Counted from the first letter of the stretch, positions 29,964-58,210 are shown. The stretch is DNA of 64,000 bases from an uncultured Ulvibacter sp. (GCA_938041335.1 CALIAF010000005.1:25-64024); one strand, 5' to 3'. Program-made: numbers and translations. The notes: generated by a model not told the origin, from the letters alone.

Positions 29964-30106
29964 AGAAGCAAGAGGAAAGACGGTTCCTGCGGAACTGAAA
30001 GAGGAAAGATTAAATGTAAAAAATCTTCTAATTCTTCTTATCTAATTCTTCATCAATTCTTTCTTCTTTCAATAAGCCAAGGGAAAGGTCTTTACTTCTT
30101 ACTTCT
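29964..30106 (-). repeat. GAAAGA-family self-complementary element, copy 1
   Basis: Purine arm 29964-30009 with hairpin GTTCC-TGC-GGAAC; pyrimidine arm 30057-30106. Confidence 0.85.
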
Positions 30107-30109
30107 CAT

Positions 30110-30466
30110 TTATTGTAATGTTTTCTGAAATCCGGCCGTCATTCTTTGCCATTCTTCTATTTGACATTCTAACTCTTGTAATTCTTTAATGGTAATATAA
30201 TTTTTATGTTGTGCAATTAATAATTGCATGTTTAATTCATAAGATGACCCCATAGCAATATCTATAAAATGAATAAAAGATTTTTCACTTCTAGCAGAGC
30301 CTTCTGCTATATTACTGGGTATAGAAACGGAACACCTACTAATTTGGGATGTAAGACTATATTGCTCTTTACTAGGGAAATTTTCTATTTTATCTGAAAC
30401 GACAAAAGCAATATTTAAAGCTTTTTGCCAAATTTTTAAATTTCTGAAATTGTGTTTTTTATTCAT
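30110..30466 (-). CDS. Four-helix-bundle protein (23S rRNA IVS / bAvd-like family), second copy
   Basis: HNFRNLKIWQKA...FPSKEQYSLTSQISRCSVSIPSNIAEG...AMGSSYEL. Confidence 0.92.
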   Translation of the reverse strand: MNKKHNFRNLKIWQKALNIAFVVSDKIENFPSKEQYSLTSQISRCSVSIPSNIAEGSARSEKSFIHFIDIAMGSSYELNMQLLIAQHKNYITIKELQELECQIEEWQRMTAGFQKTLQ

Positions 30467-30479
30467 AATTACTGTTTTT

Positions 30480-30639
30480 AGAAGAAAGAAGAAAGACCGT
30501 CCGCCCAGGCGGACTGAAAGAGGAAAGACTTAACTACTCCCAACTTATTGCTTATTCTAAAATCAATCTTTAATCAATATTATCCATTCTGTCTTTCTTC
30601 TTTCAATGAGCGAAGCGAATGGTCTTTCCTCTTACTTCT
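30480..30639 (-). repeat. GAAAGA-family self-complementary element, copy 2
   Basis: Arms 30480-30529 and 30591-30639; hairpin GTCCGCC-CA-GGCGGAC; insert GAGCGAAGCGAATG. Confidence 0.9.
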
Positions 30640-30646
30640 CCATTTT

Positions 30647-31813
30647 TCACCTCAATTTCCGTTTCCTATTATTCTCATAATCGGTAAATATCATCTCTCC
30701 TAATCCTTGCAAGCCTGTATAAAAGGCTTTCCCTTGATTTGCTTCTGTAAACGCATCTACAAACTGCTGTAAGTAGGGGTCACTGGCAATCATAAAGGTT
30801 GTAATTGGAATATGTAACTTTCTAGCCTGAGCTGCCATCATATAACACTTGTTTACAATGTGCTCATCTAAGCCATTACTGTTTTTATAATATCGCCCAT
30901 CTGGCAAACGCAAGCAACTTGGCTTTCCATCTGTGATCATAAAAATCTGTTTGTTGGTATTTCGCTTTCTGCGAAGCATATCCATTGCCAGTTGCAACCC
31001 TGCTACTGTATTTGTGTGATACGGTCCTACATTAAGATACGGCAAATCTTTAATTTTAATAGGCCAGGCATCATTCCCGAAAACTAAAATATCTAGTGTA
31101 TCTTTTGGGTATCGTGTTGTGATTAACTCTGCTAGTGCCATTGCCACTTTCTTGGCTGGTGTGATTCTATCTTCTCCGTAAAGTATCATGGAGTGACTAA
31201 TATCAATCATCAACACCGTGCTCATTTGCGATTTATGCATCGACTCTTCAACCACCAGATCATTTTCTGTTAACTTAAAATCCCCTATTCCATTATTGAT
31301 TTGGGCATTTTTTATACTCTCAGTCATCGAGATTTGATCTAGGGCATCGCCAAATTGATACTTTCTAAAATCACCAGATTGCTCGTCACCACTACCCATA
31401 TATTTTGTTTTGTGATTGCCTTGACCGCTTCTTTTGATCTTTCCAAATATTTGCTCTAAGGCACGTTTCCGGAGGGCTCGCTCTAGTTTTTCTGTGATAG
31501 AAATCCCGCCTTTCCCATCTCCTTTATTCCCACCTTTTCCATCTGGCTTAAACTCCTCTCTTATGTAACCACGGTCTTTTAATTCTTGAATAAAATCGTC
31601 AATGGTATAGTCTTCTGTGGTTATTTCATATTCTTGATCTAACTGTCTCAACCAATCTATGGCTTCATCAAAGTCACCAGAGGTGTGCGTGATTAACTCT
31701 TGAAAAACTTCAAAAAGACGATCAAAAATGGATTTCTCCTTTGGGGTATGTTTGGTAAAAATAAAACCCGATTTAAAGTCTGGGTTAAGGCTATTATTTT
31801 TGTCTTTCGTCAT
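30647..31813 (-). CDS. VWA-domain protein
   Basis: MIDAS-like DISHSM, HTNTVAGL, FMITDGKPS. Confidence 0.88.
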   Translation of the reverse strand: MTKDKNNSLNPDFKSGFIFTKHTPKEKSIFDRLFEVFQELITHTSGDFDEAIDWLRQLDQEYEITTEDYTIDDFIQELKDRGYIREEFKPDGKGGNKGDGKGGISITEKLERALRKRALEQIFGKIKRSGQGNHKTKYMGSGDEQSGDFRKYQFGDALDQISMTESIKNAQINNGIGDFKLTENDLVVEESMHKSQMSTVLMIDISHSMILYGEDRITPAKKVAMALAELITTRYPKDTLDILVFGNDAWPIKIKDLPYLNVGPYHTNTVAGLQLAMDMLRRKRNTNKQIFMITDGKPSCLRLPDGRYYKNSNGLDEHIVNKCYMMAAQARKLHIPITTFMIASDPYLQQFVDAFTEANQGKAFYTGLQGLGEMIFTDYENNRKRKLR

Positions 31814-31935
31814 TTGATAAAATTACTACAATTTAAAGTTTAACATCCCTAAGATATTGTTAAACAAATATGGGTTTATTAATTCTCTTCGGAAATAGTA
31901 AAACCATTCTAAATAAGTCTACAAATTTTTAAAAA

Positions 31936-31984
31936 TTCTTTCTTCTTTCAACAACCGAAGCGAATGGTCTTTCTTCTTTCTTCT
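31936..31984 (-). repeat. GAAAGA-family half element (opening arm only)
   Basis: TTCTTTCTTCTTTCAACAACCGAAGCGAATGGTCTTTCTTCTTTCTTCT, near-identical to 30591-30639. Confidence 0.85.
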
Positions 31985-32070
31985 ATTTTGTAGCAGCTTC
32001 TCCAAATTTTATGATACGTACTGCCGAAGTTTTTTTATCTTTAAGCTTTAATCAACCAAGCCAATTTCCG

Positions 32071-35000
32071 ATGAAAAATATATTGCTCTTGCTATGCCTT
32101 AGCCTATTTACAACCACTCAATCTCAAGAATTAACCAATTCAATACTTAATGAAATGACGCCCAGAAACATAGGCCCAGGGGGTATGTCTGGTCGTGTAA
32201 CTTCTATTGATGTGGTTACTGATAATCCAGACATTATGTATGTGGGTACTGCTTCTGGTGGATTATGGAAATCTACGAGCGGTGGGATTAAATGGGACCC
32301 AATTTTTGATAACGAATTGACAGCATCTATAGGTGCCGTCGCCATCACACAATCTAATCCATCTGTGATTTGGGTGGGAACTGGAGAAGGAAACCCGCGT
32401 AACAGTCTCAATGGTGGTTATGGTGTTTATAAATCGCTTGATGGTGGTAAAAACTGGATGGCCATGGGACTTGAAAAAACGAGACACATTCATAAAATAC
32501 TCATTGATCCTACTGATCCAGACACCGTCTATATAGGCGCAATTGGTTCTCCTTGGGGTGATCACGAAGAACGAGGGCTTTATAAAACAACAGATGGCGG
32601 AAAGTCCTGGAACAAGATTCTGTACCAAAACAAAACAACAGGAGTAGCAGATATGGTAATGGACCCTACCAACCCTAATAAACTGCTTGTGGCGATGTGG
32701 GATCATAAACGGGACCCTTGGTTTTTTAGAAGTGGTGGCGAAGGCTCTGGACTATTTATTACTCACGATGGCGGTGATACTTGGGAAGAACGAACAGAAA
32801 AAGAAGGATTACCTAAAGGTGATTTGGGGCGAATCGGGCTTTCTATTGCACCTAACAAGCCAAATATCATTTATGCTTTAGTAGAAGCCAAAAAGAATGC
32901 TTTATATAAATCTGAAGATGGTGGCTTTAACTGGAAAAAAATCAATGACAAGAGTGATATTGGTAACCGACCTTTTTATTACAGTGACATTTTTGTAGAT
33001 CCAGAAAACGAGAATCGAGTGTTTTCTGTATTTACATATGTAAATGTTTCTGAAGATGGAGGGAAAAACTTTAAGCAGTTAATGGGCGCATATGGTGTAG
33101 ATAACGGTGTACACCCCGATCATCACGCTTGGTGGATTCACCCAACAGATGGGAGTTTTATGATCGACGGTAACGACGGCGGACTCAATATTACGTACGA
33201 TGGAGGAAAAACATGGCGCTTTATTGGCAACCTACCCGTGGCTCAATTTTACCATATTAATGTAGACAATGAATATCCGTACAATGTGTATGGCGGAATG
33301 CAAGATAACGGCAGCTGGAGAGGTCCCGCTTATGTTTGGAAAGCGCAAGGAATACGGAATAGCTACTGGCAGGAAATAAGTTTTGGTGATGGTTTTGATG
33401 TGGTTCCAGATCAAGATGACAGCCGGTATGGTTGGAGTATGAGTCAGCAGGGCTCTGTGAGCCGCTATGACTGGCAAACGGGTAATAACTATACCATAAA
33501 ACCCACGCATCCAGATGCAGATGTGAAGCTTAGATTTAACTGGAATAGCGCGATTAACATTGATCCATTTGATACGAGTACGATTTATTTTGGTAGTCAG
33601 TTTGTTCACAAATCTGTAGATAAAGGGTTGACCTGGACGGTCATCTCGCCAGACTTGAGTACTAATGATCCAGAAAAACAAAAGCAAAGCGAAAGCGGTG
33701 GCCTTACTATGGATGCCACAGGAGCAGAGAATCACACCACAATTTTAGTGATTGAGCCTTCGCCCGTGGAGAAAGATGTTCTTTATGCCGGAACAGATGA
33801 TGGTCGTGTACACGTTACTCAAAATGGTGGAGCCTCTTGGGAAGAAATCTCTAGACTCCCTAGTTTACCTCCTGGAAGTTGGATCACGCAGATTAAAGCT
33901 AGTCAAACAAAAAAAGGAGCAGCGCTATTGGTAGCAAATGACTATAGGCGATATAACTACAGTCCTTATGCCTATAGAACAGATGACTACGGTAGATCTT
34001 GGCGACGCATTGTAAATGAAAAAGATACCGAGAGTTACACCTTGTGTATTGTAGAAGATCCGGTAGAAAACAACTTGATGTTCTTGGGTACAGACGATGG
34101 TTTATATTACTCTATCAACGCCGGATTTACTTGGGATAAATACACCAATGGATTCCCTACGGTACCGGTAAAGGATTTAGTGATTCATCCAAGAGAACAC
34201 GATTTAGTCATTGGTACTTTTGGTAGAGCGGCTTGGGTATTAGATGACATCAGACCCTTACGCGCCATTGCAAAAAACAAATCAGTACTCAATGAAAGCT
34301 TAAAAGTGTTTGATCCTCCCACCGCTTACCAAGCCGCTTATCAACAACCTACGGGGAGCCGTTTTGGGGGAGATGCTTTATACAATGGTGAGAACAGGTC
34401 TGGAGGTGCGCAAATTAGTTATCTGTATAATGCACCTGCGAGTGCTTCGGAAATGCCAAAAACCGAAGACACAGAAGAGGATGAAAAAGAAGATAAGACA
34501 ATTAAAACGAAGGGACCTTCAAAAGATTCTATTTACATGAAAATTTATGATGGTGATCGATTAATTAGAAGTTTAAAACGAAAAGTCCCTGACAGTTCTG
34601 GTATTTACAAATGGACTTGGAGAATGAGAGAAGCTGGCGTTGACAGACCTTCTCGTACTATCAGAAAACGAAGCCGCGAACCAGGAGGCACATCAGTAAA
34701 GCCAGGAAACTATCGTGTAGAAATGGAAAATAATGGAACTACGACTGCTACAATGATTACTGTAGAAAGCGATCCTAGAATTGACGTTCCACAAAAAGCG
34801 ATTAATGAAAGTTATAACGCATCTAAACAAATAGAGCAAATGACACAAACTGCCGCAGATGCCGTAAAGCAATTAGTAGAAAGTAAAACGGCTTCGGAAA
34901 CGTTCAGCAAAAAATTAAAAGAGAACGATAAAGAGAAATATAAAGACGAACTAAAAGAAGTCAAAGACATCAACAAGAAAATTGACAAATTAATTGCTCT

Positions 35001-35277
35001 TTATATTGGCACAGTAGATAAGCGACAAGGGATAACAAGAAATCCGGAAGTTACAGTAATGAATCGCATAGGAAGTGCCAGTTGGTATTCTGGGACTCGA
35101 CCAAACGGACTCACACAAACGGAGCGTACTTTAATTGAGCACGCAACAAAGGAGCTGAATGATGCGCTCACTAAAACAAATGAATTTTTTAATACAGACT
35201 GGCAAGCATATACGGCAAAAATGAAGGCCATATCAGTGCCTACTTTTAAAGAAACAAAGACTTTTAAACTCAAATAA
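32071..35277 (+). CDS. VPS10/BNR-repeat secreted protein (start moved from 32011 to the ATG at 32071)
   Basis: RNIGPGGMSGRV, many T/S-x-D-G-G-x-x-W boxes, C-terminal coiled coil. Confidence 0.88.
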   Translation: MKNILLLLCLSLFTTTQSQELTNSILNEMTPRNIGPGGMSGRVTSIDVVTDNPDIMYVGTASGGLWKSTSGGIKWDPIFDNELTASIGAVAITQSNPSVIWVGTGEGNPRNSLNGGYGVYKSLDGGKNWMAMGLEKTRHIHKILIDPTDPDTVYIGAIGSPWGDHEERGLYKTTDGGKSWNKILYQNKTTGVADMVMDPTNPNKLLVAMWDHKRDPWFFRSGGEGSGLFITHDGGDTWEERTEKEGLPKGDLGRIGLSIAPNKPNIIYALVEAKKNALYKSEDGGFNWKKINDKSDIGNRPFYYSDIFVDPENENRVFSVFTYVNVSEDGGKNFKQLMGAYGVDNGVHPDHHAWWIHPTDGSFMIDGNDGGLNITYDGGKTWRFIGNLPVAQFYHINVDNEYPYNVYGGMQDNGSWRGPAYVWKAQGIRNSYWQEISFGDGFDVVPDQDDSRYGWSMSQQGSVSRYDWQTGNNYTIKPTHPDADVKLRFNWNSAINIDPFDTSTIYFGSQFVHKSVDKGLTWTVISPDLSTNDPEKQKQSESGGLTMDATGAENHTTILVIEPSPVEKDVLYAGTDDGRVHVTQNGGASWEEISRLPSLPPGSWITQIKASQTKKGAALLVANDYRRYNYSPYAYRTDDYGRSWRRIVNEKDTESYTLCIVEDPVENNLMFLGTDDGLYYSINAGFTWDKYTNGFPTVPVKDLVIHPREHDLVIGTFGRAAWVLDDIRPLRAIAKNKSVLNESLKVFDPPTAYQAAYQQPTGSRFGGDALYNGENRSGGAQISYLYNAPASASEMPKTEDTEEDEKEDKTIKTKGPSKDSIYMKIYDGDRLIRSLKRKVPDSSGIYKWTWRMREAGVDRPSRTIRKRSREPGGTSVKPGNYRVEMENNGTTTATMITVESDPRIDVPQKAINESYNASKQIEQMTQTAADAVKQLVESKTASETFSKKLKENDKEKYKDELKEVKDINKKIDKLIALYIGTVDKRQGITRNPEVTVMNRIGSASWYSGTRPNGLTQTERTLIEHATKELNDALTKTNEFFNTDWQAYTAKMKAISVPTFKETKTFKLK

Positions 35278-35292
35278 CCAAATATATTAATT

Positions 35293-37239
35293 ATGAAAAA
35301 TTTACTAATCATCACAGGATGTGCTTTACTCCTATTGGCGTGTAAAGACAATGCCAAAGAATACAGCACCGCAAAAACGGAAGTAGCAAACTATACCATT
35401 GAGCAATTTATGGATAATGAGAGTGCCTTTGCTAATGGCTACTCGTCAGACAAGAGTAAAATTTTGATGACCAGTAATCGCTCAGGGATTTTTAATATGT
35501 ACACCACAAGTGGAACCGGTGGCGAAGTAATGCCTATTACAAAAAGTGACAGCGCCTCTATTTATGGAATATCGTATTTCCCAGAAGATGATCGTATTCT
35601 TTTTAGAATGGATGGAAATGGCGATGAAATTTTCAAAATTTTTATGAAAGATGGAGAAACAATTAAAGCATTGACACCTGTCGAGAAAGTACGCGCTTTA
35701 TTTCAAGGATGGTCTAAAGATGGAAAACAGTTTTCTTACGCAAGTAATGAAAGAGACCCAAGGTATATGGATCAATACGAAATGGACATTGCTACTTTGA
35801 CTTCAAAAATGGTATATCAAGCAGAAGAAGGAATTGATTTTGCAGGAATGACAGAAGACAAAAAACACATTGCCTTGTTAAGCCCAATAAACACTAATGA
35901 TTCTGACTTGTACGTTCTAAATACTGAGACTGGAATCAAAACAAAAGTGAATGACAATGTGAGCGGAAATAGCCCTCAAGATTTTTCACCAGATGGTAAG
36001 TCTATGTATTATACTACTGATGATGGTGGCGAGTTTAGCTATGTAATGAAATATAATATCGCAGAAGGGACTAAAGAAAGGGTGATTGAAAGGGATTGGG
36101 ATATCAATGGGTATAGCTTTTCAGAAAATGGTAAATATCAAACTACTTTTATAAATGAAGATGCAAAAAACAGTATAGAAATCACAGAAGTTGCTACAGA
36201 AACAGCTTTGGACTTACCTTCTGTAGATGGTAAAGAGATTACAGGCGTTACATTCTCTCGCGATGAAGAATCAGTTTTATTGCGAATAGGAGGGTCTAAC
36301 ACCCCATCAGATTCGTATTCGTATAATTTAAAAACTAAAGCGTTATCTAGACTTACTGAAAATCTAAACGACGAGATTATGCAAGATGATCTTGTATCAG
36401 CTAAAGTAATTAGATATCGTTCTTTTGATGGTGTAGAAATTCCTGCAATCTATTACCAACCTATTCAGGCAACAGCAGATAACCCTGTCCCAGCACTAGT
36501 TTGGGTTCACGGAGGACCAGGTGGTCAGTCTAGACAAGGTTTTAATAGTACGATCCAGTATTTAGTAAATCACGGATATGCAGTACTAGCAGTGAATAAT
36601 AGAGGAAGTAGCGGCTATGGTAAGACCTTCTATAAAATGGATGACCAAAACCACGGAGACAAAGATTTAAAAGATTGTATTGCTGGTAAAGATTGGTTGG
36701 CTGGGCAAGAGGTTATTGATGGTGATAAAATTGGAATTATCGGTGGCTCTTATGGAGGTTATATGACTATGGCTGCACTAACCTATGCTCCAGAAGAATT
36801 TAATGTGGGTGTAAATATTTTTGGTGTAACCAACTGGATGCGTACCTTAAAAAATATTCCGCCATGGTGGGAATCTTTTAAAGACGCATTATATACTGAG
36901 ATGGGTGATCCAAATACAGAAGATAGTATTCGTTTAAAGCAACAGTCTCCCCTATTTCATACAGAAAATGTAACAAAGCCATTAATGGTTTTACAAGGTG
37001 CAAAAGACCCAAGAGTATTACAAATAGAAAGTGATGAGATCGTTGCAGGTGTGCGTAAAAATGGAGTTCCTGTAGAATACGTTTTGTTTGAAGACGAAGG
37101 CCATGGTTTTGTAAAGAAAGAAAATAGAATTGAAGCCTATGGAAAAATCAAAGAGTTTCTAGACCTCTATTTAAAAGGTAGTGCAGAAGTAATGAATGAT
37201 GGAGAGCAACAAAAACCAATTAAGATAGACACGCATTAG
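35293..37239 (+). CDS. S9-family prolyl oligopeptidase / acylaminoacyl peptidase, lipoprotein
   Basis: VHGGPGG, GGSYGG nucleophile, DPRV, DEGHGF. Confidence 0.92.
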   Translation: MKNLLIITGCALLLLACKDNAKEYSTAKTEVANYTIEQFMDNESAFANGYSSDKSKILMTSNRSGIFNMYTTSGTGGEVMPITKSDSASIYGISYFPEDDRILFRMDGNGDEIFKIFMKDGETIKALTPVEKVRALFQGWSKDGKQFSYASNERDPRYMDQYEMDIATLTSKMVYQAEEGIDFAGMTEDKKHIALLSPINTNDSDLYVLNTETGIKTKVNDNVSGNSPQDFSPDGKSMYYTTDDGGEFSYVMKYNIAEGTKERVIERDWDINGYSFSENGKYQTTFINEDAKNSIEITEVATETALDLPSVDGKEITGVTFSRDEESVLLRIGGSNTPSDSYSYNLKTKALSRLTENLNDEIMQDDLVSAKVIRYRSFDGVEIPAIYYQPIQATADNPVPALVWVHGGPGGQSRQGFNSTIQYLVNHGYAVLAVNNRGSSGYGKTFYKMDDQNHGDKDLKDCIAGKDWLAGQEVIDGDKIGIIGGSYGGYMTMAALTYAPEEFNVGVNIFGVTNWMRTLKNIPPWWESFKDALYTEMGDPNTEDSIRLKQQSPLFHTENVTKPLMVLQGAKDPRVLQIESDEIVAGVRKNGVPVEYVLFEDEGHGFVKKENRIEAYGKIKEFLDLYLKGSAEVMNDGEQQKPIKIDTH

Positions 37240-37251
37240 TGTTGCGTAATG

Positions 37252-37279
37252 AGTAGTAAGTAGTAAGTAGTAAGTAGTA
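37252..37279 (+). repeat. Heptamer tract (AGTAGTA)x4
   Basis: Perfect tandem between the S9 peptidase stop and the next start. Confidence 0.9.
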
Positions 37280-37294
37280 AAAATAAAAAAATAA

Positions 37295-38032
37295 ATGAAA
37301 AAAATATGTTTCGCCCTTTTATTGGGGTTAATAGCGAATGCCGCACACGGTCAAATAAACGTTCCAGAAACTGGAGAAGATAAGTTAGGCAGTTGGGTTA
37401 TGTTTTTTGGAAATGCTCGCTTTACCGAGCGCTTTAGTATCAGTCCTGAAATCCAGTACAGAACCTACGAAGTGGGGTCCAATTTTAACCAACTCTTAAT
37501 AAGAAATGGTTTTAATTGGCATATAAATGATAAAGCTACTGCAACATTAGGTTATGGATATATAGCTACCGATGGCACTTTTGAAGAACCTAATGGTGAA
37601 GAAAACACCACAGAACATAGATTCTATGGACAGTTTGCGCTCAAAAACGCTGTTGGAAAAATTAAGTTTTCACATCGTTATAGACTTGAACAACGATTTA
37701 TCAATAGCCCTACTAGTGGTAACGACACCCAATATAGAGCACGTTATTTATTAAGACTCACCTACCCTATTAATGAGACCTGGTATGTAAGCGCCTATGA
37801 CGAAGTTTTTATCAACCTACAAGAACCCATCTTTAGTCAAAATAGATTGTATACTTCGGTGGGTTATAAATGGTCTAAAAACCTAAGATCTGAATTTGGG
37901 TATTTAAAAAACCATTTTACTGGGATTAATTATGATCGTTTACAGTTAGGTTTTTGGTATTCCTTAGACTTAAGAAACGAAACGTCAGACAACAACAAAG
38001 CAAATTTTGAACAAGGAAAAAGAATGTTTTAA
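37295..38032 (+). CDS. DUF2490-like outer-membrane beta-barrel protein
   Basis: LGSW, EIQYR, EHRFYGQ, HRYRLEQRF, RARY, DEVFINL, QNRLY. Confidence 0.8.
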   Translation: MKKICFALLLGLIANAAHGQINVPETGEDKLGSWVMFFGNARFTERFSISPEIQYRTYEVGSNFNQLLIRNGFNWHINDKATATLGYGYIATDGTFEEPNGEENTTEHRFYGQFALKNAVGKIKFSHRYRLEQRFINSPTSGNDTQYRARYLLRLTYPINETWYVSAYDEVFINLQEPIFSQNRLYTSVGYKWSKNLRSEFGYLKNHFTGINYDRLQLGFWYSLDLRNETSDNNKANFEQGKRMF

Positions 38033-38069
38033 TTCTTGATTGAATAGCTTCTAAAAACACAAAATCTTA

Positions 38070-48220: not shown

Positions 48221-48285
48221 TACAAGACGATAATAATCTGTTAATGTATCTTTACTAACGTTTTTTTTGCTAAATCTTATTTAAA

Positions 48286-49494: not shown

Positions 49495-49505
49495 TTTAAT
49501 TTTAA

Positions 49506-50261: not shown

Positions 50262-50281
50262 AGGTTTCTTAATCTGAAATT

Positions 50282-50599
50282 TTAATACTTGAAATTATTG
50301 TCATCATGCTCCATTAGCTCTTTCATCTTACGCTCTTCCCATCGCTTCACAAAACCGAATGATGGCACAAACACTGCTAATCCGTGAATGGACAATCCTA
50401 TTCCCCAGAATACTGGTGTCGAAAGATACTTCCAAAAACCATATCCCTGGCCTTCGCTAAAATCAGTAAAAAAATTAGAGTTTGCGGCTAGAATAAACAC
50501 ATTTACTAGTATAAATACTGATAAATGAGAGTAAAAACCTTTAATCTTTTTTATTCTCTTACGGGCTTTAACCACTCTAATGTCTTCTATATCTTCCAT
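50282..50599 (-). CDS. 2TM-domain protein
   Basis: ARKRIKKIKGFYSHL, WGIGLSIHG, WEERKMKELM. Confidence 0.85.
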   Translation of the reverse strand: MEDIEDIRVVKARKRIKKIKGFYSHLSVFILVNVFILAANSNFFTDFSEGQGYGFWKYLSTPVFWGIGLSIHGLAVFVPSFGFVKRWEERKMKELMEHDDNNFKY

Positions 50600-50602
50600 A
50601 AT

Positions 50603-50908
50603 TTATCTATTAAAATTAGATTTATTTTCTTCATCCATTAATTCTTTCATCTTACGCTCTTCCCAGTCTTTACCAAAAAAGGGATTCCAATCAAAGGCTT
50701 TAGCCGCTTGAAAAATAAGTCCTATTCCCCAACCAAAAGCGGCCCATAAAAACCAAGGGTGTCTCCATTCATTAATGTAATAATTAAGTCCTCCCAAAAG
50801 AGAAATAAACACTACATAGCTCATTAAGCTCGTGTAAAATTTCTTCATTTCTTTTACACGGTCCTTTGCTTTGTAATACGCATCGTCTTTTCTAATAGGT
50901 TCCATCAT
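50603..50908 (-). CDS. 2TM-domain protein
   Basis: AKDRVKEMKKFYTSL, WGIGL, GKDWEERKMKELM. Confidence 0.85.
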   Translation of the reverse strand: MMEPIRKDDAYYKAKDRVKEMKKFYTSLMSYVVFISLLGGLNYYINEWRHPWFLWAAFGWGIGLIFQAAKAFDWNPFFGKDWEERKMKELMDEENKSNFNR

Positions 50909-50931
50909 TTGTTTTTTATTGGTTTATACTA

Positions 50932-51002
50932 TAAAGATACCCAAGGTTTACGTGACTTTAAATTACTTAGTGCTCAACTGTTGAATACGATAGACCAAAT
51001 GT
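50932..51002 (-). promoter_or_regulatory. LytTR-type tandem boxes plus -7 element (2TM-2TM-lytTR unit)
   Basis: Minus strand ACATTTGGT...ACAGTTGAG at 21-bp period; -7 TATCTTTA at 50932-50939. Confidence 0.75.
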
Positions 51003-52336
51003 TAATCTTCTTTATCCAGCATTTCTTTAATCTTTCTATCTTCCCAATCTTTACCAAAAAAGGGGTTCCAATTAAAAGTCTCTGCCGCATGACCAGCAAC
51101 TCCAAACCCCCAACCACCTATTGGGAATATCGCCCAAGGAAAACCAGCATTAGATTGATAGTTTAACCAAATAAAAATAGGTACAAACAAAAGATATATT
51201 GCAAAGTGAACATAAAACCCTTTCATTTTATCCACCTGATCCTTTGCATTCTCATATCGTTTTTCGCTGATGTATGTATCCTGGGTTTTCATAACTTTTA
51301 TGTTTTGTGTGATTATAGGTATGGAAATTTTAAATAGGTCCTGGCTATGTTCAATCTGTACTATTTCCGAAGTTAATATAGCATACCGTTGCTTTATATT
51401 ACGTAGCCCAACTCCACTGCTCTCTTTTAAAGTTTGCTTGACCTGTACGTTATTAGTCACCGTTAGTGTGCCTTCATTTTCTGTGATAGTGATGTATAAT
51501 TTTTTTGAAGGGGTTACTTGATTGTGCTTTACTGCATTCTCTAATAACAATTGCAAGGCTAAGGGCACCACCTTGCCCTCAGGATTCATCAATTTTTCTG
51601 GAGTTGTAAAAACAATACTATCTTCAAAACGCATTTTTAAAAGTGACATATATAAATGTGCAAACTTGATTTCTTCTTCTATGGTTACAAGTTCTTTGTT
51701 TTTCTGTTCTAAAACATATCTATATACCTTTGATAATGCAGTGGTAAATCGTGTTGCTGCTTCTGGGTTTTCTTCTATTAGACTGGTTAATACATTAAGG
51801 CTATTAAATAAAAAATGAGGATCTAACTGGTTTTTTAAGGCATCAAACTGGGCAGAAGCTACGCCCGCTATTATTTTTTGCTCCTTTACACGATTGTCTT
51901 GCTTACTTTTATAATAGTATAAGAAATAGAATATCGTGCTTATTATAACCGAAATCGTGAATCCAATGGTGTAATAAGCTAATGATTCTCGTGTAATAAA
52001 ATCGGTATAGCTCCTATCATACACTACAACCGCAGTAAACAGTCGTATTAAAAACATAGTACTCAAAGTTGCTATAATACCTAAGGCGATACCTTTTATT
52101 AAATTTTTAAATTTAAATAAAGCAGGGCCGTATGTTCTCATCATATAGTTTATAACCAAGTCATTTGCCAGGTATAAGAGGACAGAATAGACTTGATTAT
52201 AGATAAATTGTTCTAGAAGTGCATCATCTAGAGAAAAGCTATAGCCGTTTACAAAATACTGATAGATCCCTAAAAAAAGGAATATTACAATACCTATTAA
52301 GAATGCTTGTACTATTTTGCCTAAATATTGTTTCAT
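51002..52336 (-). CDS. LytS-like sensor histidine kinase with C-terminal 2TM domain
   Basis: LKNQLDPHFLFNSLN, LLLENAVKHN, SGVGLRNI; terminal 2TM WNPFFGKDWEDRKIKE. Confidence 0.92.
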   Translation of the reverse strand: MKQYLGKIVQAFLIGIVIFLFLGIYQYFVNGYSFSLDDALLEQFIYNQVYSVLLYLANDLVINYMMRTYGPALFKFKNLIKGIALGIIATLSTMFLIRLFTAVVVYDRSYTDFITRESLAYYTIGFTISVIISTIFYFLYYYKSKQDNRVKEQKIIAGVASAQFDALKNQLDPHFLFNSLNVLTSLIEENPEAATRFTTALSKVYRYVLEQKNKELVTIEEEIKFAHLYMSLLKMRFEDSIVFTTPEKLMNPEGKVVPLALQLLLENAVKHNQVTPSKKLYITITENEGTLTVTNNVQVKQTLKESSGVGLRNIKQRYAILTSEIVQIEHSQDLFKISIPIITQNIKVMKTQDTYISEKRYENAKDQVDKMKGFYVHFAIYLLFVPIFIWLNYQSNAGFPWAIFPIGGWGFGVAGHAAETFNWNPFFGKDWEDRKIKEMLDKED

Positions 52337-52965
52337 TATTCTTTACAATTGGTGTCTATAAACTCTTGTGCTCTATCGCTGCTAAATTTAGGAAAGAACG
52401 CTCCTTCCGGTTCAAAATTCTGCGATAATTCTATCGCTTTTTGCACATCTGCACAAAAAGGTTGCATAGGCTTCCCAAAATATTTTGCAGTTCCTGCATC
52501 CCATTGTGCTTTTCCAAAAATAACAATTGGATTTTCTGGGGCTAAAGCTAAGGCCTCATTATATATTGTAGTTACTTTACCAGCATATTTCATCCCGTAT
52601 GTCATACCATCAAAAGTAATCCAAGCGGTATAATATTGTCCTTCTAGGACTTTTATATAAGGATTATCTTCTTCTGTTAAACTCTTTGCCTGATTTAAAA
52701 AATCTAGCGCTTTATCCAGTTGTGCTTTTAGCACTGCTGGATCTTTCTCTCCAAAACTCTTTATTACATTAACCTGAGATGTATAATATACTGGAATCCA
52801 GTTGTCTTTTTCTGCCGTAGCGATACGTTCAAAAAGATTAGATGCTTCTCCCATTTTATTTTCTCCCCAAAGATCAAAGGCTTTTTTCATTCCAACTTCA
52901 TACTGTGACTGGGCACTAGCACTTATTGTAAAAAATGCCATACATAAATATAAAAGTGTTTTCAT
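52336..52965 (-). CDS. Secreted TPR-like hypothetical protein
   Basis: Signal peptide, helical repeats; stop/start overlap with the kinase gene. Confidence 0.75.
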   Translation of the reverse strand: MKTLLYLCMAFFTISASAQSQYEVGMKKAFDLWGENKMGEASNLFERIATAEKDNWIPVYYTSQVNVIKSFGEKDPAVLKAQLDKALDFLNQAKSLTEEDNPYIKVLEGQYYTAWITFDGMTYGMKYAGKVTTIYNEALALAPENPIVIFGKAQWDAGTAKYFGKPMQPFCADVQKAIELSQNFEPEGAFFPKFSSDRAQEFIDTNCKE

Positions 52966-53001
52966 AATTCTTATGGTATTAGTAGCTTTTTAGAGGCTAA
53001 T

Positions 53002-53460
53002 TTAGTTATTCATTTTTAAGTTGAAATTTAATGGCTCGTTTTTAAGTGTAAATTTTGCATCTGCCCATTCTGGTGGACCAAACTTTCCTGAGGCATAATT
53101 AGAATGTACGTAATCTTCTTTTGGGAACATGCCTAAAATCATATCGAGTTCTTGATTTTCATTCTCATCATGAAAAGCAGAAACAGCATACTCGCCTGCA
53201 GGAACATCATAAAAAATTACGGTTGCCGTATTATTTGAAATTGATTGAATAGATCCTATTTCAGGTTCTCCCAGAAAATTGTCCTCACTATTGTAAAGCG
53301 CGACCATTAATTTCCCATCATTCGAGTCTAGATTTGTAATAGTTACGGTAATCGATGATTGTGCTGTAAGCATCACCCCTGTAAAAAGTAAAGTTAAATA
53401 AGTAAGTACAGTTTGCATAATATGTTTGGTTTTAATGTTGGTACAAAGATGGAATAACAA
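53002..53460 (-). CDS. DUF2141-family protein (likely start 53420, MQTVL)
   Basis: GKLMVALY, VPAGEYAVSAFHDENEN, FGPPEWADAKF. Confidence 0.85.
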   Translation of the reverse strand: MLFHLCTNIKTKHIMQTVLTYLTLLFTGVMLTAQSSITVTITNLDSNDGKLMVALYNSEDNFLGEPEIGSIQSISNNTATVIFYDVPAGEYAVSAFHDENENQELDMILGMFPKEDYVHSNYASGKFGPPEWADAKFTLKNEPLNFNLKMNN

Positions 53461-53514
53461 GGTTCATTTTTAAAAACTATCCTACCCAACTGTCATTTTC
53501 TAGTACTGAAATGT
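53444..53514 (-). promoter_or_regulatory. LytTR-type tandem boxes plus -7 element (DUF2141-TPR-kinase unit)
   Basis: Minus strand ACATTTCAG...ACAGTTGGG at 21-bp period; -7 CATCTTTG at 53444-53451. Confidence 0.78.
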
Positions 53515-53636
53515 CAAAATTATTTGCGATTTCTGGTTTCTGGCTTAGGACTGCTGTTTGTATTCAATTCAATTTTCGTTTCCAAGCGCTAACTATCCAC
53601 TAAACACTATTTACTAGATACTTAATACCCACTTTT

Positions 53637-55814
53637 TTAAAGCTTATCTAACTGATTATCACTCCCATCTTCACTGATAGTAATAAACAGCCCAATAAAG
53701 AAAAACTGATCTGCCGCTGGACGCAATGTTCTCCTATCAAAATTACCCAAGGGATTGGGAGTATCCGCATACTGGTACCCATTTACATTTTTGAAATTTG
53801 TAATATTATTTACAGAAGCGTAAAGTATGGTTTGCTCAGATAATAAATACGCCCAGTTGACGCTCAAATTATTGTACCCTTTAGTTTTCTGACTTAAAAA
53901 TCCGTCAAGATTGGGATCTGTATAACTACGTCCACTCCCGTATTGATAACTAAAGCCAACTTGGCTTTTCCAGTCTTCTATCCAGTATTTACCTACTACA
54001 GAAAAATTGTGTGTGTTAGCAAAATTAGGCGTTGCTGCTATAGGATAGTTTAAATATTCCCTTTCGCTATCTAAGTATGAATAGCTTACCCAGTAATCTG
54101 TATTTTTAATGGTGCTGTTGTCTCTAAAAAACAAATCAAGTCCTTGTGCATATCCTTTACCATCTGTGCCATAAGCACTATCAAAAGAAGCCATAGGGTC
54201 TGTAAAAGTAACTAGGTTAGTATATTCTTTTCTGAAAATTTCCGCACGGAAAATTCGGTCATTTGCCGTGTACTGGTAATTGGCAATAAAGTGTTGGGAC
54301 TTAGCTGCATGTAGATCTTCTGTATATTTTAAATAAGCACTTTGCGGTTGTTGATAAAAGTCTCCATAGGCAACCGATAACTGGCTATTCTTACCTGTTT
54401 TATAGGCTAATGAGATTCTTGGTGCTACCGTAGCCTCTTTAAAAAGATCACTATAACTACCTCTTAGCCCTAGTTTTACAGCAAATTTTCTGCTAAACAC
54501 ATAATCTGCTTCTGTAAATAACGCCGTGATATTATTATCGTATCCTATTTTTCCACTTGCAAAAGGAGTATCAAAGCGTTCATCAAAATCTGTCATAAAT
54601 TGTTCTGCTCCAAAGCTCCACTTAAATTTACTATTAAAGCTCTTGTGCACTTTGGCTTTTACATGAATTGATTTCTCGTCTGTATGAATAGCAGCCGTAT
54701 CAAAATCTGTTTTGTTATTGGTGTAGGTATAACTCCCACCAGTAAGCAACTTCCATTTATTCCCCAATGGAGCTTGATAACTTAGATTTGCGTAGAAGTT
54801 ATTATTTTTTAGTCCAAAAAGAATACCGTCTTCAACATTAATATCTTCTAGGGTTAATTTAAAATTAGTCGTGTCAAAAGCGGCATATGCTTTTAAGAGT
54901 CCATCTCCTATTTTGTGTCTATAGACCGTTTCTCCAGAAAGCACCTCAAAAGGTTTTTCCCATTCATTACGGTCTGGCAATAATGCTACATATGGAGCAA
55001 GATTAATATAGGAACCATTTACGCTTAAAGAAGAATTATCCCATTTTTGTGTGTTACCCAAAGCACCACCCACAGTCATAATTCCAATTTCTGTTTTTTC
55101 TTGATCCGGCTCGTCTATCGTATTTAATAGTAATACAGATGACAAAGCTTCTCCATACTCTGCGCTATAACCACCTGTGCTAAATGTAATCCCATCAAAC
55201 AAAAATGGACTATACCTTCCTCTAGTAGGTGTGTTTGCCGTTGTGGGTGTGTAAGGGCTAAATACTCTTAAACCATCAATAAAAATCTGTGTCTCATTAG
55301 CATCACCCCCGCGTACAAAGAGCCTTCCATCTTCTGCCACCGTGGTTGTACCTGGTAATGTTTGCAGTGCTCCTACAAAGTCACCCAATGCACTTGCCGT
55401 AGTCACTACATCTAACGGTTTTAACACAGAAACCTTACTATTATCACTTGCCTCAAACGATCCGGCAGATATGACCACCGTGTCTAGTGAGTTTACATCT
55501 TCAATTAGAACCACCTTATAATTGGTAAAAGTGGTCACCTCTTGTGTAATTTTAAAGGTTTCAAAAGAGACAAAACTCACCACCAATGTTTGTTGTCCAG
55601 TTTCATTAGTTGTAAAACTAAACGTACCATCTAATTGAGACGTTGCACCGTCATATGTGCCATCAAGATAAACGTTTGCACCAAGTATGGGCGTTCCGTT
55701 CTTTTCTGTGATGGTACCAGATATGTTTGTTTGAGCTTGCGCAAAAATGCTGAAGAAACAGCATAAGAAGACAAGTATTGAAAATTTCCGAAGAGATTGG
55801 ATGGCAAGAGTCAT
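53637..55814 (-). CDS. TonB-dependent receptor with CarboxypepD_reg-like N-terminus
   Basis: ISGTITEKNGTPILGANV, GATSQLDGTFS, plug LPGT...FVRGG...IFIDGL. Confidence 0.9.
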   Translation of the reverse strand: MTLAIQSLRKFSILVFLCCFFSIFAQAQTNISGTITEKNGTPILGANVYLDGTYDGATSQLDGTFSFTTNETGQQTLVVSFVSFETFKITQEVTTFTNYKVVLIEDVNSLDTVVISAGSFEASDNSKVSVLKPLDVVTTASALGDFVGALQTLPGTTTVAEDGRLFVRGGDANETQIFIDGLRVFSPYTPTTANTPTRGRYSPFLFDGITFSTGGYSAEYGEALSSVLLLNTIDEPDQEKTEIGIMTVGGALGNTQKWDNSSLSVNGSYINLAPYVALLPDRNEWEKPFEVLSGETVYRHKIGDGLLKAYAAFDTTNFKLTLEDINVEDGILFGLKNNNFYANLSYQAPLGNKWKLLTGGSYTYTNNKTDFDTAAIHTDEKSIHVKAKVHKSFNSKFKWSFGAEQFMTDFDERFDTPFASGKIGYDNNITALFTEADYVFSRKFAVKLGLRGSYSDLFKEATVAPRISLAYKTGKNSQLSVAYGDFYQQPQSAYLKYTEDLHAAKSQHFIANYQYTANDRIFRAEIFRKEYTNLVTFTDPMASFDSAYGTDGKGYAQGLDLFFRDNSTIKNTDYWVSYSYLDSEREYLNYPIAATPNFANTHNFSVVGKYWIEDWKSQVGFSYQYGSGRSYTDPNLDGFLSQKTKGYNNLSVNWAYLLSEQTILYASVNNITNFKNVNGYQYADTPNPLGNFDRRTLRPAADQFFFIGLFITISEDGSDNQLDKL

Positions 55815-55838
55815 AGTGATTGGTTTTAAAATCTACTA

Positions 55839-55909
55839 CAAATTTGAGCAAAGAACATATTAGAAATAAATAAAATACTCCCAACTGTAGAAAACAGATA
55901 CCGAAGTGT
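55839..55909 (-). promoter_or_regulatory. LytTR-type tandem boxes plus -7 element (TonB receptor)
   Basis: Minus strand ACACTTCGG...ACAGTTGGG at 21-bp period; -7 CAAATTTG at 55839-55846. Confidence 0.78.
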
Positions 55910-55984
55910 CAGTATTTAATTTGACCCTTTGTTTTTGGGTCTTAAAATGATAAAAGGTATCTTCACTTTATTAAGTTATGGGGT

Positions 55985-56578
55985 ATGACTATTTCAGAAA
56001 AAATAGAAGCAATTATTGAAAAACACCCAAAATGGAAAACAGAACTCTATAAAATTCGAGCCGTTTTGCAAGAAAGCGAACTCGAAGAAGCCATAAAGTG
56101 GGGAGCTCCTGCATATTTGTTAGGAACGAAGATCGTAATAGGCTTTATGGGTTTTAAAAACCATTGCGGTATTTGGTTTCATCAAGGCGTATTTTTAAAA
56201 GATAAAGACAAGGTATTGACTAATGCGCAAGAAGGCAAAACAAAAGCCATGCGTATGTGGAAGTTTTATAAAGGAGACACTGTTGACATCGCCTTGTTAA
56301 GAGAATATATGAATGAATCAATAGCAAATACAATTGCCGGTAAAGAGGTTAAACCGGGGCTAAGATTGATTGCTGCACCTCCATTAATCGTACAAGTGTT
56401 ACATACCAATAATGCCCTTAACGATGCTTTTATGGCTTTATCACAAGGCAAGCAGAACGACTATAATGAGTACATTGCAACTGCAAAGCAAGAGAAGACA
56501 AAACAAAGTAGATTGGAAAAAATTATCCCAATGATTATGGCTGGAAAAGGACTACACGATAAATACAAAAACTGTTAA
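55985..56578 (+). CDS. YdeI/OmpD-associated family protein (DUF1801 + OmdA)
   Basis: EEAIKWGAPAY, FKNHCGIWFHQG, LSQGKQNDYNEYIATAKQEKTKQSR. Confidence 0.88.
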   Translation: MTISEKIEAIIEKHPKWKTELYKIRAVLQESELEEAIKWGAPAYLLGTKIVIGFMGFKNHCGIWFHQGVFLKDKDKVLTNAQEGKTKAMRMWKFYKGDTVDIALLREYMNESIANTIAGKEVKPGLRLIAAPPLIVQVLHTNNALNDAFMALSQGKQNDYNEYIATAKQEKTKQSRLEKIIPMIMAGKGLHDKYKNC

Positions 56579-57693
56579 TGGCAAAAGCACTCCGTTTTAA
56601 AAGTTATACTAAAAGACAATTCTGGTTTTATACCAAACGCGCATTATGGGTGCTATTTGCTTGGACCCTGATTGCCGTAGTGCTTTTCTATTTTGAGTAT
56701 TACACGCTAATAAGTGAAAATGCCTTAACCTCTCAATACGACTTTGAGCAAGCATTTACTGCAAATTTAATTATGGCAGTATCTGCAGGGCTTATAGGTG
56801 GTATAGTTACGGTAAACCTCATGGAAAGATGGCTTCGGAAATATGCTTTCTGGAAGGCACTTACTTTAATTATAGTTACCTATATCGTTGCAGCACTTAT
56901 AGTAAGCAGTATTGCGGGGCTTTATTATTACAGTGAGCAGGATGGCTTACCCTTAACACATCCAGATGTTTTAGCCGAATTTGACGGCTTTTTTAAAGAA
57001 TGGATCTTTATAAAAAACTTTATTATCTGGCTTTTCATTGTTATAGGCACCCTAATCGTATTTATGATTAACAATAAGTTTGGTCCAGGTGTATTTCCAG
57101 ATTACCTAATGGGCCGCTATTTTCATCCTAAACGTGAGAAACGTATTTTCATGTTTGTCGATATCAAGGACGCCACTACCATTGCCGAAAATCTTGGAGA
57201 AGAAAAATACTTCAATTTTTTAAAAGATTTTTTTAGAGATATCGCACCAGCCATTGTCATCACTAAAGGAGAGGTGTATCAATATGTAGGTGATGAAGTT
57301 GTAATTTCATGGAAAATGAAAAATGGACTTAAAAAAGGTAACGTGCTGCATTGTTACTATAGTATGCTTAAAATAATTAATCAAAAAGCTTCTCGATATC
57401 AAAGTAAATATGGTCTTGTACCTGAGTTTAAAGTAGGTATTCATTTTGGCCCAATTATGGTGGGTGAACTAGGAGAAATTAAAAGAGAGATCGTATTTTC
57501 TGGAGATGTTTTAAACACGGCTGCTAGAATTAGTGCCAAATGTAATGATCTAGGAGTTTCGATTTTAGCCTCAAAAGAGTTTGCAAACATCACAACAGAA
57601 CTACCTAAATATGTAAAAGTAATTGATGTAGGTGAAGAAAACCTTAAGGGAAAAGCAGAAGATGTGGCACTTGTCACCTATAAAAAAATATAA
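56578..57693 (+). CDS. Membrane-bound class III adenylate/guanylate cyclase-domain protein
   Basis: Four TM segments; FMFVDIKDAT, YQYVGDEV, GIHFG, FSGDVLNTAARI. Confidence 0.9.
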   Translation: MAKALRFKSYTKRQFWFYTKRALWVLFAWTLIAVVLFYFEYYTLISENALTSQYDFEQAFTANLIMAVSAGLIGGIVTVNLMERWLRKYAFWKALTLIIVTYIVAALIVSSIAGLYYYSEQDGLPLTHPDVLAEFDGFFKEWIFIKNFIIWLFIVIGTLIVFMINNKFGPGVFPDYLMGRYFHPKREKRIFMFVDIKDATTIAENLGEEKYFNFLKDFFRDIAPAIVITKGEVYQYVGDEVVISWKMKNGLKKGNVLHCYYSMLKIINQKASRYQSKYGLVPEFKVGIHFGPIMVGELGEIKREIVFSGDVLNTAARISAKCNDLGVSILASKEFANITTELPKYVKVIDVGEENLKGKAEDVALVTYKKI

Positions 57694-57712
57694 ACTTAAA
57701 ACAGCTATCAAT

Positions 57713-58072
57713 ATGAAAACAGATGCGTACACAAAAGTCATTCTAACTGTTATTGCGGTTTGCTTAACGCTAAACGTGGTTCAAAATTTAGATATTATTC
57801 CTACTGCCCAAGCAGCTAATACTAGTTTGGAAACTCCAGAAGTAGAATACCATTTAGTCCCTGTAACACCTAACCAAGTGATGGACGTGCGCATTGTAGA
57901 TATAAACACCTCAGACGAGATGAACATAAATATTAAAAGTGTAGACACCTATGATGAGTTTAAAGTAAACCTAAAAAGTATAGATACCACTGACGAACTT
58001 GATATCAATATTGATGAAGTAGGCGGCTCTTGGGTTTCTAGTGGAGGACCAATAAAAGTGAAAGTGGAGTAA
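57713..58072 (+). CDS. Hypothetical exported protein with 13-residue repeats (start moved from 57632)
   Basis: MKTDAYTKVILTVIAVCL; VRIVDINTSDEMN/INIKSVDTYDEFK/VNLKSIDTTDELD. Confidence 0.75.
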   Translation: MKTDAYTKVILTVIAVCLTLNVVQNLDIIPTAQAANTSLETPEVEYHLVPVTPNQVMDVRIVDINTSDEMNINIKSVDTYDEFKVNLKSIDTTDELDINIDEVGGSWVSSGGPIKVKVE

Positions 58073-58073
58073 A

Positions 58074-58210
58074 AAAAGACCGCTTCGCTGAAAGATAAAA
58101 GACCAATCGCTTCGCTCTTTGAAATAAGAAAGACTTGAATCAACTTTTATTTAGACAAAAAGTCATTCTTCTTTCAGTGCGCCTTGGCGCACGGTCTTTG
58201 TTCTTTGTTC
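58074..58210 (+). repeat. GAAAGA-family self-complementary element, copy 3
   Basis: AAAGACCAATCGCTTCGCTCTTTGAAATAAGAAAGAC ... GTCATTCTTCTTTCAGTGCGCCTTGGCGCACGGTCTTTG, starting right after a stop codon. Confidence 0.88.

Follow-up and report, generated by a model that had tools for sequence, protein, structure and literature searches.

Intervening sequences (IVS) occur in the 23S rRNA genes of Leptospira, Coxiella, Brucella, Xanthomonas and Salmonella, with or without an S23p (PF05635) open reading frame (ORF), and the origin, mobility and purpose of these insertions, and of the common, functionless-looking genes annotated as 'four helix bundle protein', have been a question since about 1990. 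The Correia elements of Neisseria, another kind of small insertion, are RNase III substrates. RNase III excises the Coxiella IVS, which has a 28-bp inverted-repeat stem and, upstream of its S23p ORF, tandem GACAGAT heptamers (PMC4990558), and the PF05635 four-helix-bundle (4HB) family, encoded in some 23S rRNA IVS, is homologous to Avd of diversity-generating retroelements (PMC10053308). CGTC-tagged repetitive extragenic palindromic (REP) sequences are defined by an unpaired CGTC tag, a stem of 8-9 bp starting with A/T, a loop of 4-5 nt and a CCA tail (Di Nocera et al. 2013, PMC3733652); they have no dedicated transposase and are present in Bacteroidetes, Gramella forsetii being listed, and there are REP families that lie within longer palindromic contexts (PMC3733652). 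Here we describe a palindromic element of 115-160 nt from a 64,000-nt stretch of an uncultured Ulvibacter sp. (GCA_938041335.1 CALIAF010000005.1:25-64024; 'the window' below means this whole stretch), which holds three full copies (c1, c2 and c3) and one half copy.

We find the element to be a genuine repeat of marine Bacteroidota, a non-coding palindromic mosaic present in multiple copies, in which single-strand pairing is kept despite sequence change, which is tolerated only between genes, and whose arms are common to gene-less and 4HB-bearing forms. We read it, with a probability of roughly 60%, as a gene-less, miniature member of an IVS-type selfish cassette family, similar to MITEs (inverted-repeat transposable elements of miniature size) and with stems that would be RNase III substrates. 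Each arm is a short array of the purine heptamer GAAAGAA/GAAAGAC, with the pyrimidine complement opposite, interrupted by a small REP-like hairpin; an IVS-type cassette consists of a PF05635 (S23p/Avd-like) 4HB ORF between inverted heptamer arrays, which is how ORF-bearing 23S rRNA IVS are built, and the element would be its gene-less form. Such cassettes would here occupy operon spacers and sites downstream of genes instead of rRNA. Once transcribed, their purine/pyrimidine stems of 15-21 bp would be cut by RNase III, as IVS stems are, and this cleavage would excise the insert or uncouple it from the flanking cistrons, so that insertion within operons (or rRNA) would be harmless. The tandem heptamers may also allow the stem to form in several registers and the arms to grow or shrink by slippage, and the gene-less form would multiply by itself, as a MITE does, whether or not the 4HB protein takes part.

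Copies and architecture of the element in the window

The building block of the element is the 14-mer GAAAGAAGAAAGAC (two purine heptamers), present twice in direct and twice in inverted orientation, with a short hairpin nested in each arm. Allowing two mismatches at most, it occurs 14 times in the window against 0.84 expected, and 13 of these 14 occurrences fall within the four copies. Read in the sense of the upstream gene, a full copy begins with an outer arm (AGAAG.AAGA.GAAAGAC-C), module A (~16 nt) and an inner arm (T-GAAAGAAGAAAGAC), continues with an AT-rich centre of 27-63 nt and ends with an inner arm (GTCTTTCYTCTTTC-A), hairpin B and an outer arm (G-GTCTTTCTTCTTTCTTCT). A covariance model from another organism (R1, built from three Lewinellaceae copies only) recovered all three full copies (E from 1e-17 to 1e-9) and, beyond these, nothing in the window below E = 0.1. 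The parts of the copies, and the 4HB gene that lies between two of them, are as follows (P1, P3 and P4, paired stems):

30480..30639, minus strand: copy c2, full element, between the stop of the vWA gene (30647) and the start of the 4HB gene (30466); R1 82 bits, E=2e-17; RNA fold -57 kcal/mol, z=-5.0; boundaries set by the extent of outer-arm pairing
30621..30639, minus strand: c2 outer arm, 5' side (P1), AGAAGTAAGAGGAAAGACC, pairing at 17/19 positions (18/19 with G-U) with 30480-30498
30605..30620, minus strand: c2 module A, ATTCGCTTCGCTCATT, a degenerate hairpin with a GC-TTC-GC core; opposite strand GCGAAGC
30591..30604, minus strand: c2 inner arm, 5' side (P3), GAAAGAAGAAAGAC, two heptamers, exact match to the 14-mer
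30530..30590, minus strand: c2 AT-rich variable centre, differing in sequence from copy to copy
30516..30529, minus strand: c2 inner arm, 3' side (P3), GTCTTTCCTCTTTC, 13/14 complementary to 30591-30604
30499..30514, minus strand: c2 hairpin B (P4), GTCCGCC-TG-GGCGGAC, -11.7 kcal/mol vs -4.0 for shuffles
30480..30498, minus strand: c2 outer arm, 3' side (P1), GGTCTTTCTTCTTTCTTCT
30110..30466, minus strand: 118-aa 4HB gene (PF05635/TIGR02436), between c2 and c1, inside the vWA-AAA operon
29964..30106, minus strand: copy c1, full element, between the stop of the 4HB gene (30110) and the start of the AAA gene (29949); R1 57 bits, E=3e-11; fold -47.6 kcal/mol, z=-5.3
30088-30106 and 29964-29982, minus strand: c1 outer arms
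30071-30087, minus strand: c1 module A
30057-30070 and 29997-30010, minus strand: c1 inner arms
29983-29995, minus strand: c1 hairpin B, GTTCC-GCA-GGAAC
58075..58210, plus strand: copy c3, starting 3 nt past the stop of a 146-aa gene; R1 51 bits, E=9e-10; fold z=-2.9, minimum-energy structure multi-branch
58075-58089, plus strand: c3 leading short unit, AAAGACC-GCTTCGCT
58090-58104 and 58193-58210, plus strand: c3 outer arms
58105-58120, plus strand: c3 module A
58121-58134 and 58162-58175, plus strand: c3 inner arms
58177-58192, plus strand: c3 hairpin B, GTGCGCC-TT-GGCGCAC
31934..31988, minus strand: half copy, made up of outer arm, module A and inner arm only, upstream of the vWA gene in the divergent region

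An earlier note on this DNA had reported the same four places, and their coordinates and quoted sequences match the window, the start of c3 and both ends of the half copy having been refined slightly to the values listed. The arm complementarities that it gave for c2 (13/14 and 17/19) can be read directly from the sequence, and its three B hairpins are present and fold. Full copies do begin 1-7 nt after the stops of the vWA, 4HB and 146-aa genes, in the sense of these genes, and c3 is indeed without a 4HB gene nearby, as tblastn gives just two such genes in the window (5814-6170 and 30110-30466). The centre of c2 is without similarity to 4HB cassettes, and its module A takes the position held in Lewinellaceae copies by the clean hairpin AATTGC-TTC-GCAATT.

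The window is AT-rich (GC ~36%) and its sequence is represented solely in marine metagenomes; by protein identity its source is a flavobacterium in or close to Patiriisocius, the vWA protein sharing 93-94% of its residues with the counterparts in P. marinus and Patiriisocius sp. Uisw_017. No copy is found in the syntenic 21-kb regions of P. marinus, P. hiemis, Jejudonia, L141 and L142, and the half copy is missing at the syntenic region of four relatives (L053-L056). Over the left arm of c3 (58090-58133) metagenome contigs are 2-4x as deep as over the flanks, and in three contigs the arm is joined to other flanking sequence, which shows that the source metagenome has more copies of the arm. 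A further hairpin, AACCGCGT-N14-ACGCGGTT, with an A run on one side and a T run on the other, separates c3 from the convergent ndk gene (58228-58262) and looks like a bidirectional terminator; c3 is therefore probably not the terminator of its upstream gene.

Fold and covariation on both strands

Either strand, when single-stranded, is predicted to fold as a four-way junction made of P1 (18-21 bp), hairpin P2, P3 (15 bp or more) with the variable centre, and hairpin P4. Searching 292 kb with R1 found about 26 elements, both strands at near-equal scores, which makes the element pseudo-twofold symmetric. On these copies the earlier note's multi-way junction and compensatory changes hold up, with the refinement that the junction is pseudo-symmetric and four-way, not three-way, ATTCGCTTCGCTCATT corresponding in degenerate form to a second hairpin whose versions in other genomes are clean. 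The note had left the choice between RNA and single-stranded DNA; the junction fold stands, and since both strands fold equally well it fixes neither the strand nor this choice. Mismatches of the G-U versus A-C kind are uninformative for assigning the strand, because the element is pseudo-symmetric.

In an alignment that was fitted to the model and contains both strands of each copy, 88.4% of the cells are paired, compared with 78.7% in shuffles and 48-58% with slid partners, and double changes are found in 226 cells, compared with 81 in shuffles. All eight pairs of P2 and all eight of P4 covary; the arms P1 and P3 are kept as sequence and show little covariation. A perfect four-way junction is the minimum-energy fold in four of six canonical copies (z -4.8 to -14.3 over the six), and the module hairpins have a mean of -6.5 kcal/mol vs -2.6 for shuffles. 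All three window copies fold better than shuffles (z values above); the minimum-energy fold of c1 and c2 is an extended hairpin in which the two modules are partly paired with each other. Three classes of hairpin were recognised: class I, C-GTCCCGCC-N4-GGCGGGAC-T, with the variants GTTCCGCC, GTCTCCGC, GTCCCGAA and ATCCCGCT; class II, RRTYGC-TYC-GCRAYY, of which module A of the window is a degenerate form; and class III, GCATTGCC-TTC-GGCAATAC. Their triloops read GNA on the opposite strand.

The strong covariation in P2 and P4 would also suit a structured RNA acting in cis and serving the host, as a stabiliser, an attenuator/terminator or a processing signal of 3' UTRs and intercistronic regions, with its fold under selection. 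Such a role would agree with copies beginning a few nt past stop codons, with the purine arm lying 5' in the sense of the neighbouring gene at about 7/8 loci of the asymmetric flavobacterial copies, and with hairpin B changing its sequence and keeping its pairing at an orthologous site (window, L153 and L156). Moreover, hairpin B followed by the pyrimidine arm (GGTCTTTCTT) passes a loose terminator pattern in all three window copies. However, a terminator at c1 or c2, which are both within an operon, would sever the AAA gene from the genes before it, and downstream of c3 there is the separate canonical terminator hairpin at 58228-58262. The equal folds and scores of the two strands speak against a host-serving RNA, and so do the unrelated neighbouring genes, the close relatives without copies at the same loci, and the existence of half copies, tandem arrays and decayed orthologues. 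At the gathering threshold, Rfam 15 gave no match in the window or in eight copy-holding loci; in E-value mode it gave chance miRNA-like matches only (21-23 bits vs thresholds of 85). The window is without rRNA. Matches resembling sigma-70 promoters are at chance level within the copies. We consider a host-serving RNA quite improbable, and thus the earlier note's alternative of a dedicated regulatory RNA of 3' UTRs loses ground to its other one, a partner of the four-helix cassettes, which is better supported. That the element was undescribed, as it had supposed, agrees with the lack of any Rfam or REP family match.

Distribution of the family and its probable tie to PF05635 genes

An arm-pattern scan of species-representative genomes found about 23 loci in one Lewinellaceae metagenome-assembled genome (MAG; class Saprospiria, 60% GC), as well as copies in Marixanthomonas spongiae, two Ulvibacter genomes and Flavobacteriaceae UBA1903, the other matches being chance. 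An arm pattern matched 74 stretches of metagenome contigs, nearly all by chance, with real copies only in L068/L089, L070/L085, L097 and L119; in viral contigs, none of the nine matching stretches was real, so there is no phage link. Copies lie in intergenic DNA without exception, many of them 1-11 nt from one or both flanking stop codons, and those of the Lewinellaceae MAG lie between convergent (9), co-directional (11) or divergent (3) gene pairs. The Lewinellaceae copies have a clean hairpin as each of their modules, and their inner stem is often prolonged by the centre. The first half of a typical copy reads AGAAGAAAGAAGAAAGACC, hairpin GCATTGCC-TTC-GGCAATAC, TGAAAGAAGAAAGAC and the centre CAGACA...TGTCTG, and the second half GTCTTTCTTCTTTCA, hairpin GTCCCGCC-GCAG-GGCGGGAC and GGTCTTTCCTCTTTCTTCT. 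Centre features such as CCAGAC...GTCTGG are common to them, and this, together with multiplication without a 4HB gene nearby, suggests that the miniature form amplifies as such. An unrelated pair of hairpins, CYAGGGG-N-CCCCTRG, then CTGAA... and GGAGTCC-TCC-GGACTCC, is found at three places of the same MAG (L021 3224-3270, L021 3829-3876 and L035 6201-6248).

Half copies occur, orthologous copies are decayed, and the arms show register shifts of 7 nt, which identify them as heptamer arrays. A 31-nt unit (the 14-mer plus module A) forms tandem arrays of 5-9 units in flavobacterial contigs, and two near-identical metagenomic contigs, L156 (2324-2500) and L157 (2138-2500), differ in having 4 vs 10 such units, GAAAGAAGTGAGACC-ACTCGCTTTGCTCGTT, upstream of a 4HB gene, and so present a variable-number tandem repeat. 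The strict 31-bp period of the arrays, and the four conserved 14-mers of each element ~31-36 bp apart (three helical turns), could be those of a binding-site array on duplex DNA for a nucleoid, replication or partition protein, the hairpins being incidental. We regard this as very improbable, since the pairing of the hairpins is kept while their sequence changes, which points to a single-stranded fold, and since the arms of related cassettes use quite different words; nor do we know of a candidate protein.

The tie to PF05635 comes from the vWA-AAA locus. The 118-aa protein encoded between c2 and c1 matches Pfam PF05635 at E=2.8e-31 and TIGR02436 at E=1.8e-29, its nearest solved relative is XCC0516 (PDB 2GSC, E=2.6e-15), and its close homologues (69-87% identity) are all encoded at the vWA-AAA locus. 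In the Ulvibacter MAG L153 and the metagenomic contigs L156 and L157, the order is outer arm, module A (one or more units), inner arm, 4HB gene, inner arm, hairpin B, outer arm, so that here the 4HB ORF is the centre of one element of the GAAAGAAGAAAGAC family; it is also the sole ORF found between arms of this family. Other relatives vary: purine heptamers, the 4HB gene and pyrimidine heptamers follow each other in Aequorivita (L155), L140 and Uisw_017 (L054); in the window and in M. spongiae the ORF stands between two full elements; L068 (2041-2211) has a left half element and then (AGTTAAA)n-like heptamers, with no 4HB ORF; and the spacer is bare (18-71 nt) in five relatives. Hairpin B varies by lineage at this locus with its pairing kept (GTTCC-GCA-GGAAC, GTTCACC-GCA-GGTGGAC, GTCCCGA-GAAT-TCGGGAC). 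A frameshift of the ORF in L054 (11181-11495, a Uisw_017-like contig) and its read-through into the pyrimidine arm in L140 (11242-11631, 129 aa) are signs of decay of the 4HB gene in some lineages.

Bracketing by inverted arrays of short words is general among the PF05635 genes sampled. A significant bracketing inverted repeat, relative to composition-preserving shuffles, is present at 10 of 12 independent loci, including the 23S rRNA IVS of Azospirillum. Ten plasmid genes of this family (L143-L152) all sit in tight slots and mostly split operons. Cyanobacterial examples (among L143-L151) separate ribonucleotide reductase beta from alpha, hlyD from an ABC transporter (with the gene on the opposite strand), cas6 from cas4 of type I-D systems (in two genera) and cas10 from cmr3 of a type III-B system; the tenth is the 23S rRNA IVS of Azospirillum lipoferum (L152). 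Inverted arrays of words of ~7 nt bracket eight of the ten; on the ORF strand the upstream words are rich in purines (GGGAGTA, GGGAACA, AGGCAGA, GGAGATA, GAGGACG and others), and at nearly all of the cyanobacterial genes the arrays resemble the heptamer arrays known as short tandemly repeated repetitive (STRR) sequences.

The second 4HB gene of the window (5814-6170) likewise splits a pair of genes, a fadB-like gene and a thiolase gene, and is bracketed by an inverted repeat of TACGAC/TAGGAC words (flanks 5736-5813 and 6171-6215; repeat 5776-5794 / 6177-6195), with the TAG stop of the gene inside the repeat. These words also build a gene-less palindromic element of ~250 nt directly after the thiolase stop codon:

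7414-7664: gene-less TACGAC/TAGGAC element
7414-7530: left arm of this element
7614-7664: right arm of this element

A segment of ~34 nt, AAAATTCATAAAATCCAAAGTATGAT(A/C)TCAA, is present at 7547-7580, in the centre of this element, and again ~180 nt downstream at 7729-7760, before the next gene; the centre thus appears to contain a duplicate of flanking sequence.

Several observations weigh against reading the GAAAGAAGAAAGAC element as a gene-less cassette of the IVS type. The GAAAGAA-armed 4HB genes are all orthologues at one locus, so that the argument from shared arms draws on one ancient event and on the general architecture of the other cassettes. There are no 4HB genes in 160 kb around the Lewinellaceae copies (none within ~4 kb of about 23 copies), which implies that the gene-less form multiplies on its own, and the centres of gene-less copies are without a remnant of the 4HB ORF. 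The partnership between element and 4HB gene that the earlier note proposed is supported where a PF05635 gene is centred in one element, at the vWA-AAA locus of relatives, and does not extend to the Lewinellaceae copies. Furthermore, the order in the window, full element, 4HB gene, full element, is not explained by a simple model with the ORF in the centre. The ends of 23 copies show no consistent target-site duplication (some read TA-GAAG...CTTC-TA), and no empty site with alignable flanks was found, either among relatives or among metagenome contigs compared with the c3 region, which gave no joints; we therefore infer mobility from copy number and patchy distribution only. Likewise, we infer RNase III cleavage, and even transcription, of the element.

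The about 23 Lewinellaceae copies without a 4HB gene nearby, and the single orthologous locus of all GAAAGAA-armed 4HB genes, would both fit an ordinary repeat of the MITE type, or of the REP type and its composites, the bacterial interspersed mosaic elements (BIME), with no real tie to 4HB genes. The ORF would then have landed in, or been trapped by, a pre-existing palindrome, because both use the same permissive spacers or because an ORF cassette targets hairpin loops, and the repeat would be spread in trans by a transposase, for example a REP-associated (RAYT) or HUH enzyme recognising hairpins of single-stranded DNA. Terminal inverted repeats, small size, many copies and intergenic placement are all in keeping with this, and so are triloops that read GNA on one strand and the GCGAAGC on the opposite strand of module A, a sequence that forms a very stable DNA mini-hairpin. 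In addition, class I hairpins and CGTC-1 REPs (reconstructed from PMC3733652) have in common a TCCCGC/GCGGGA core and an 8-bp stem with a 4-nt loop. However, the CGTC tag is paired here and the CCA tail absent, the two hairpins within an element are dissimilar, in contrast to the paired REPs of a REPIN, and no transposase was noticed beside any copy, the flanks not having been searched systematically. Filing the element as a MITE would need such a parent transposase or a target duplication, and consistent target-site duplications are lacking. Chance co-location is hard to credit when bracketing recurs at 10/12 independent PF05635 loci with quite different arm words. We therefore think an ordinary repeat unlikely and favour the IVS-type cassette.

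A wider and more tentative generalisation, about which we are doubtful, is that selfish IVS-type cassettes with inverted heptamer arrays at their ends might form a single widespread class, of which PF05635 4HB genes would be the mark and which, besides 23S rRNA, would colonise operon spacers of Proteobacteria, Bacteroidota and Cyanobacteria (cas operons among them). Its non-autonomous derivatives would then be the dispersed four-way-junction elements. The 4HB protein might be the nucleic-acid-binding factor that recognises arm or junction and helps the cassettes to persist or spread, much as the reverse transcriptase of diversity-generating retroelements is served by Avd.

Comparison with known systems

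A literature search of incomplete coverage gave no description of this Bacteroidota element or of paired gene-less and 4HB-bearing forms in operon spacers. Integron attC sites, CRISPR arrays, TnpB/IscB guide RNAs and retrons were rejected as identities, since GTTRRRY core sites are absent, genes of these systems do not adjoin the copies and the 'spacers' hardly differ from one another. The element is an unannotated repeat at which assemblies break and whose number of units changes from sample to sample, and operons of marine Bacteroidota can be split or uncoupled by it; it should be masked or modelled in searches for regulatory RNAs, and would form a new family of the Rfam/Dfam type.

By working, the closest systems are the 23S rRNA IVS elements and the REP/BIME or Correia-type repeats. 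Like REP/BIME sequences, the element consists of short, GC-rich, high-copy palindromes, mostly downstream of genes, in inverted dimers, and its class I hairpins resemble CGTC REPs in their 8-bp stem, 4-nt loop and TCCCGC/GCGGGA core. Although stem and loop sizes fit, it was rejected as a CGTC-tagged REP: CGTC overlaps the stem, with the GTC of the tag paired, the stem starts with G-C, the flanks are C...T without CCA, and the conserved part is the arm and not the hairpin. In 160 kb, moreover, no class I hairpin stood by itself away from heptamer arms, which again is unlike REPs. With Correia/NEMIS (Neisseria), ERIC, BOX (pneumococcus) and RUP elements it has in common a length of 100-200 nt, terminal inverted repeats and an intergenic and, for the element presumably, co-transcribed position, and with BOX a modular structure with internal units of variable number; unlike these, it has tandem-heptamer arms, a link to a PF05635 ORF rather than a transposase, no sequence relation to them and no target-site duplication that was found.

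The heptamer arms also recall Cyanobacteria, where STRR heptamer repeats (reportedly described by Mazel, 1990) and small dispersed repeats said to be nested in heptamer arrays (Elhai, 2008) likewise combine intergenic tandem heptanucleotide arrays with small palindromic units within them. The phylum and the words are different; still, the sampled cyanobacterial PF05635 genes were observed in this analysis to be bracketed by inverted arrays of the STRR type, a link that to our knowledge is unpublished.

The 23S rRNA IVS differ from the element in several respects. The element lies in operon spacers of mRNA and downstream of genes, and its copies are between protein-coding genes, none being in a 23S helix (9, 25 or 45), which excludes it from the strict 23S rRNA IVS class; it is dispersed, with tens of copies per genome in the Lewinellaceae MAG, and each of its arms has a nested covarying hairpin, giving the four-way junction. 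IVS are excised by RNase III, whereas excision of the element is putative. In both, however, a long stem of terminal inverted repeats encloses a variable loop, which may hold a PF05635 ORF, and purine-rich tandem heptamers lie upstream of that ORF (GACAGAT in Coxiella, GAGGACG/GATGACA in Azospirillum L152, GAAAGAA/GAAAGAC here); both exist in ORF-bearing and ORF-less forms, are patchy among relatives and are regarded as selfish. If it is true that this type of cassette inhabits operon spacers and has gene-less, multi-copy derivatives, the old question of the IVS becomes testable in ordinary genes.

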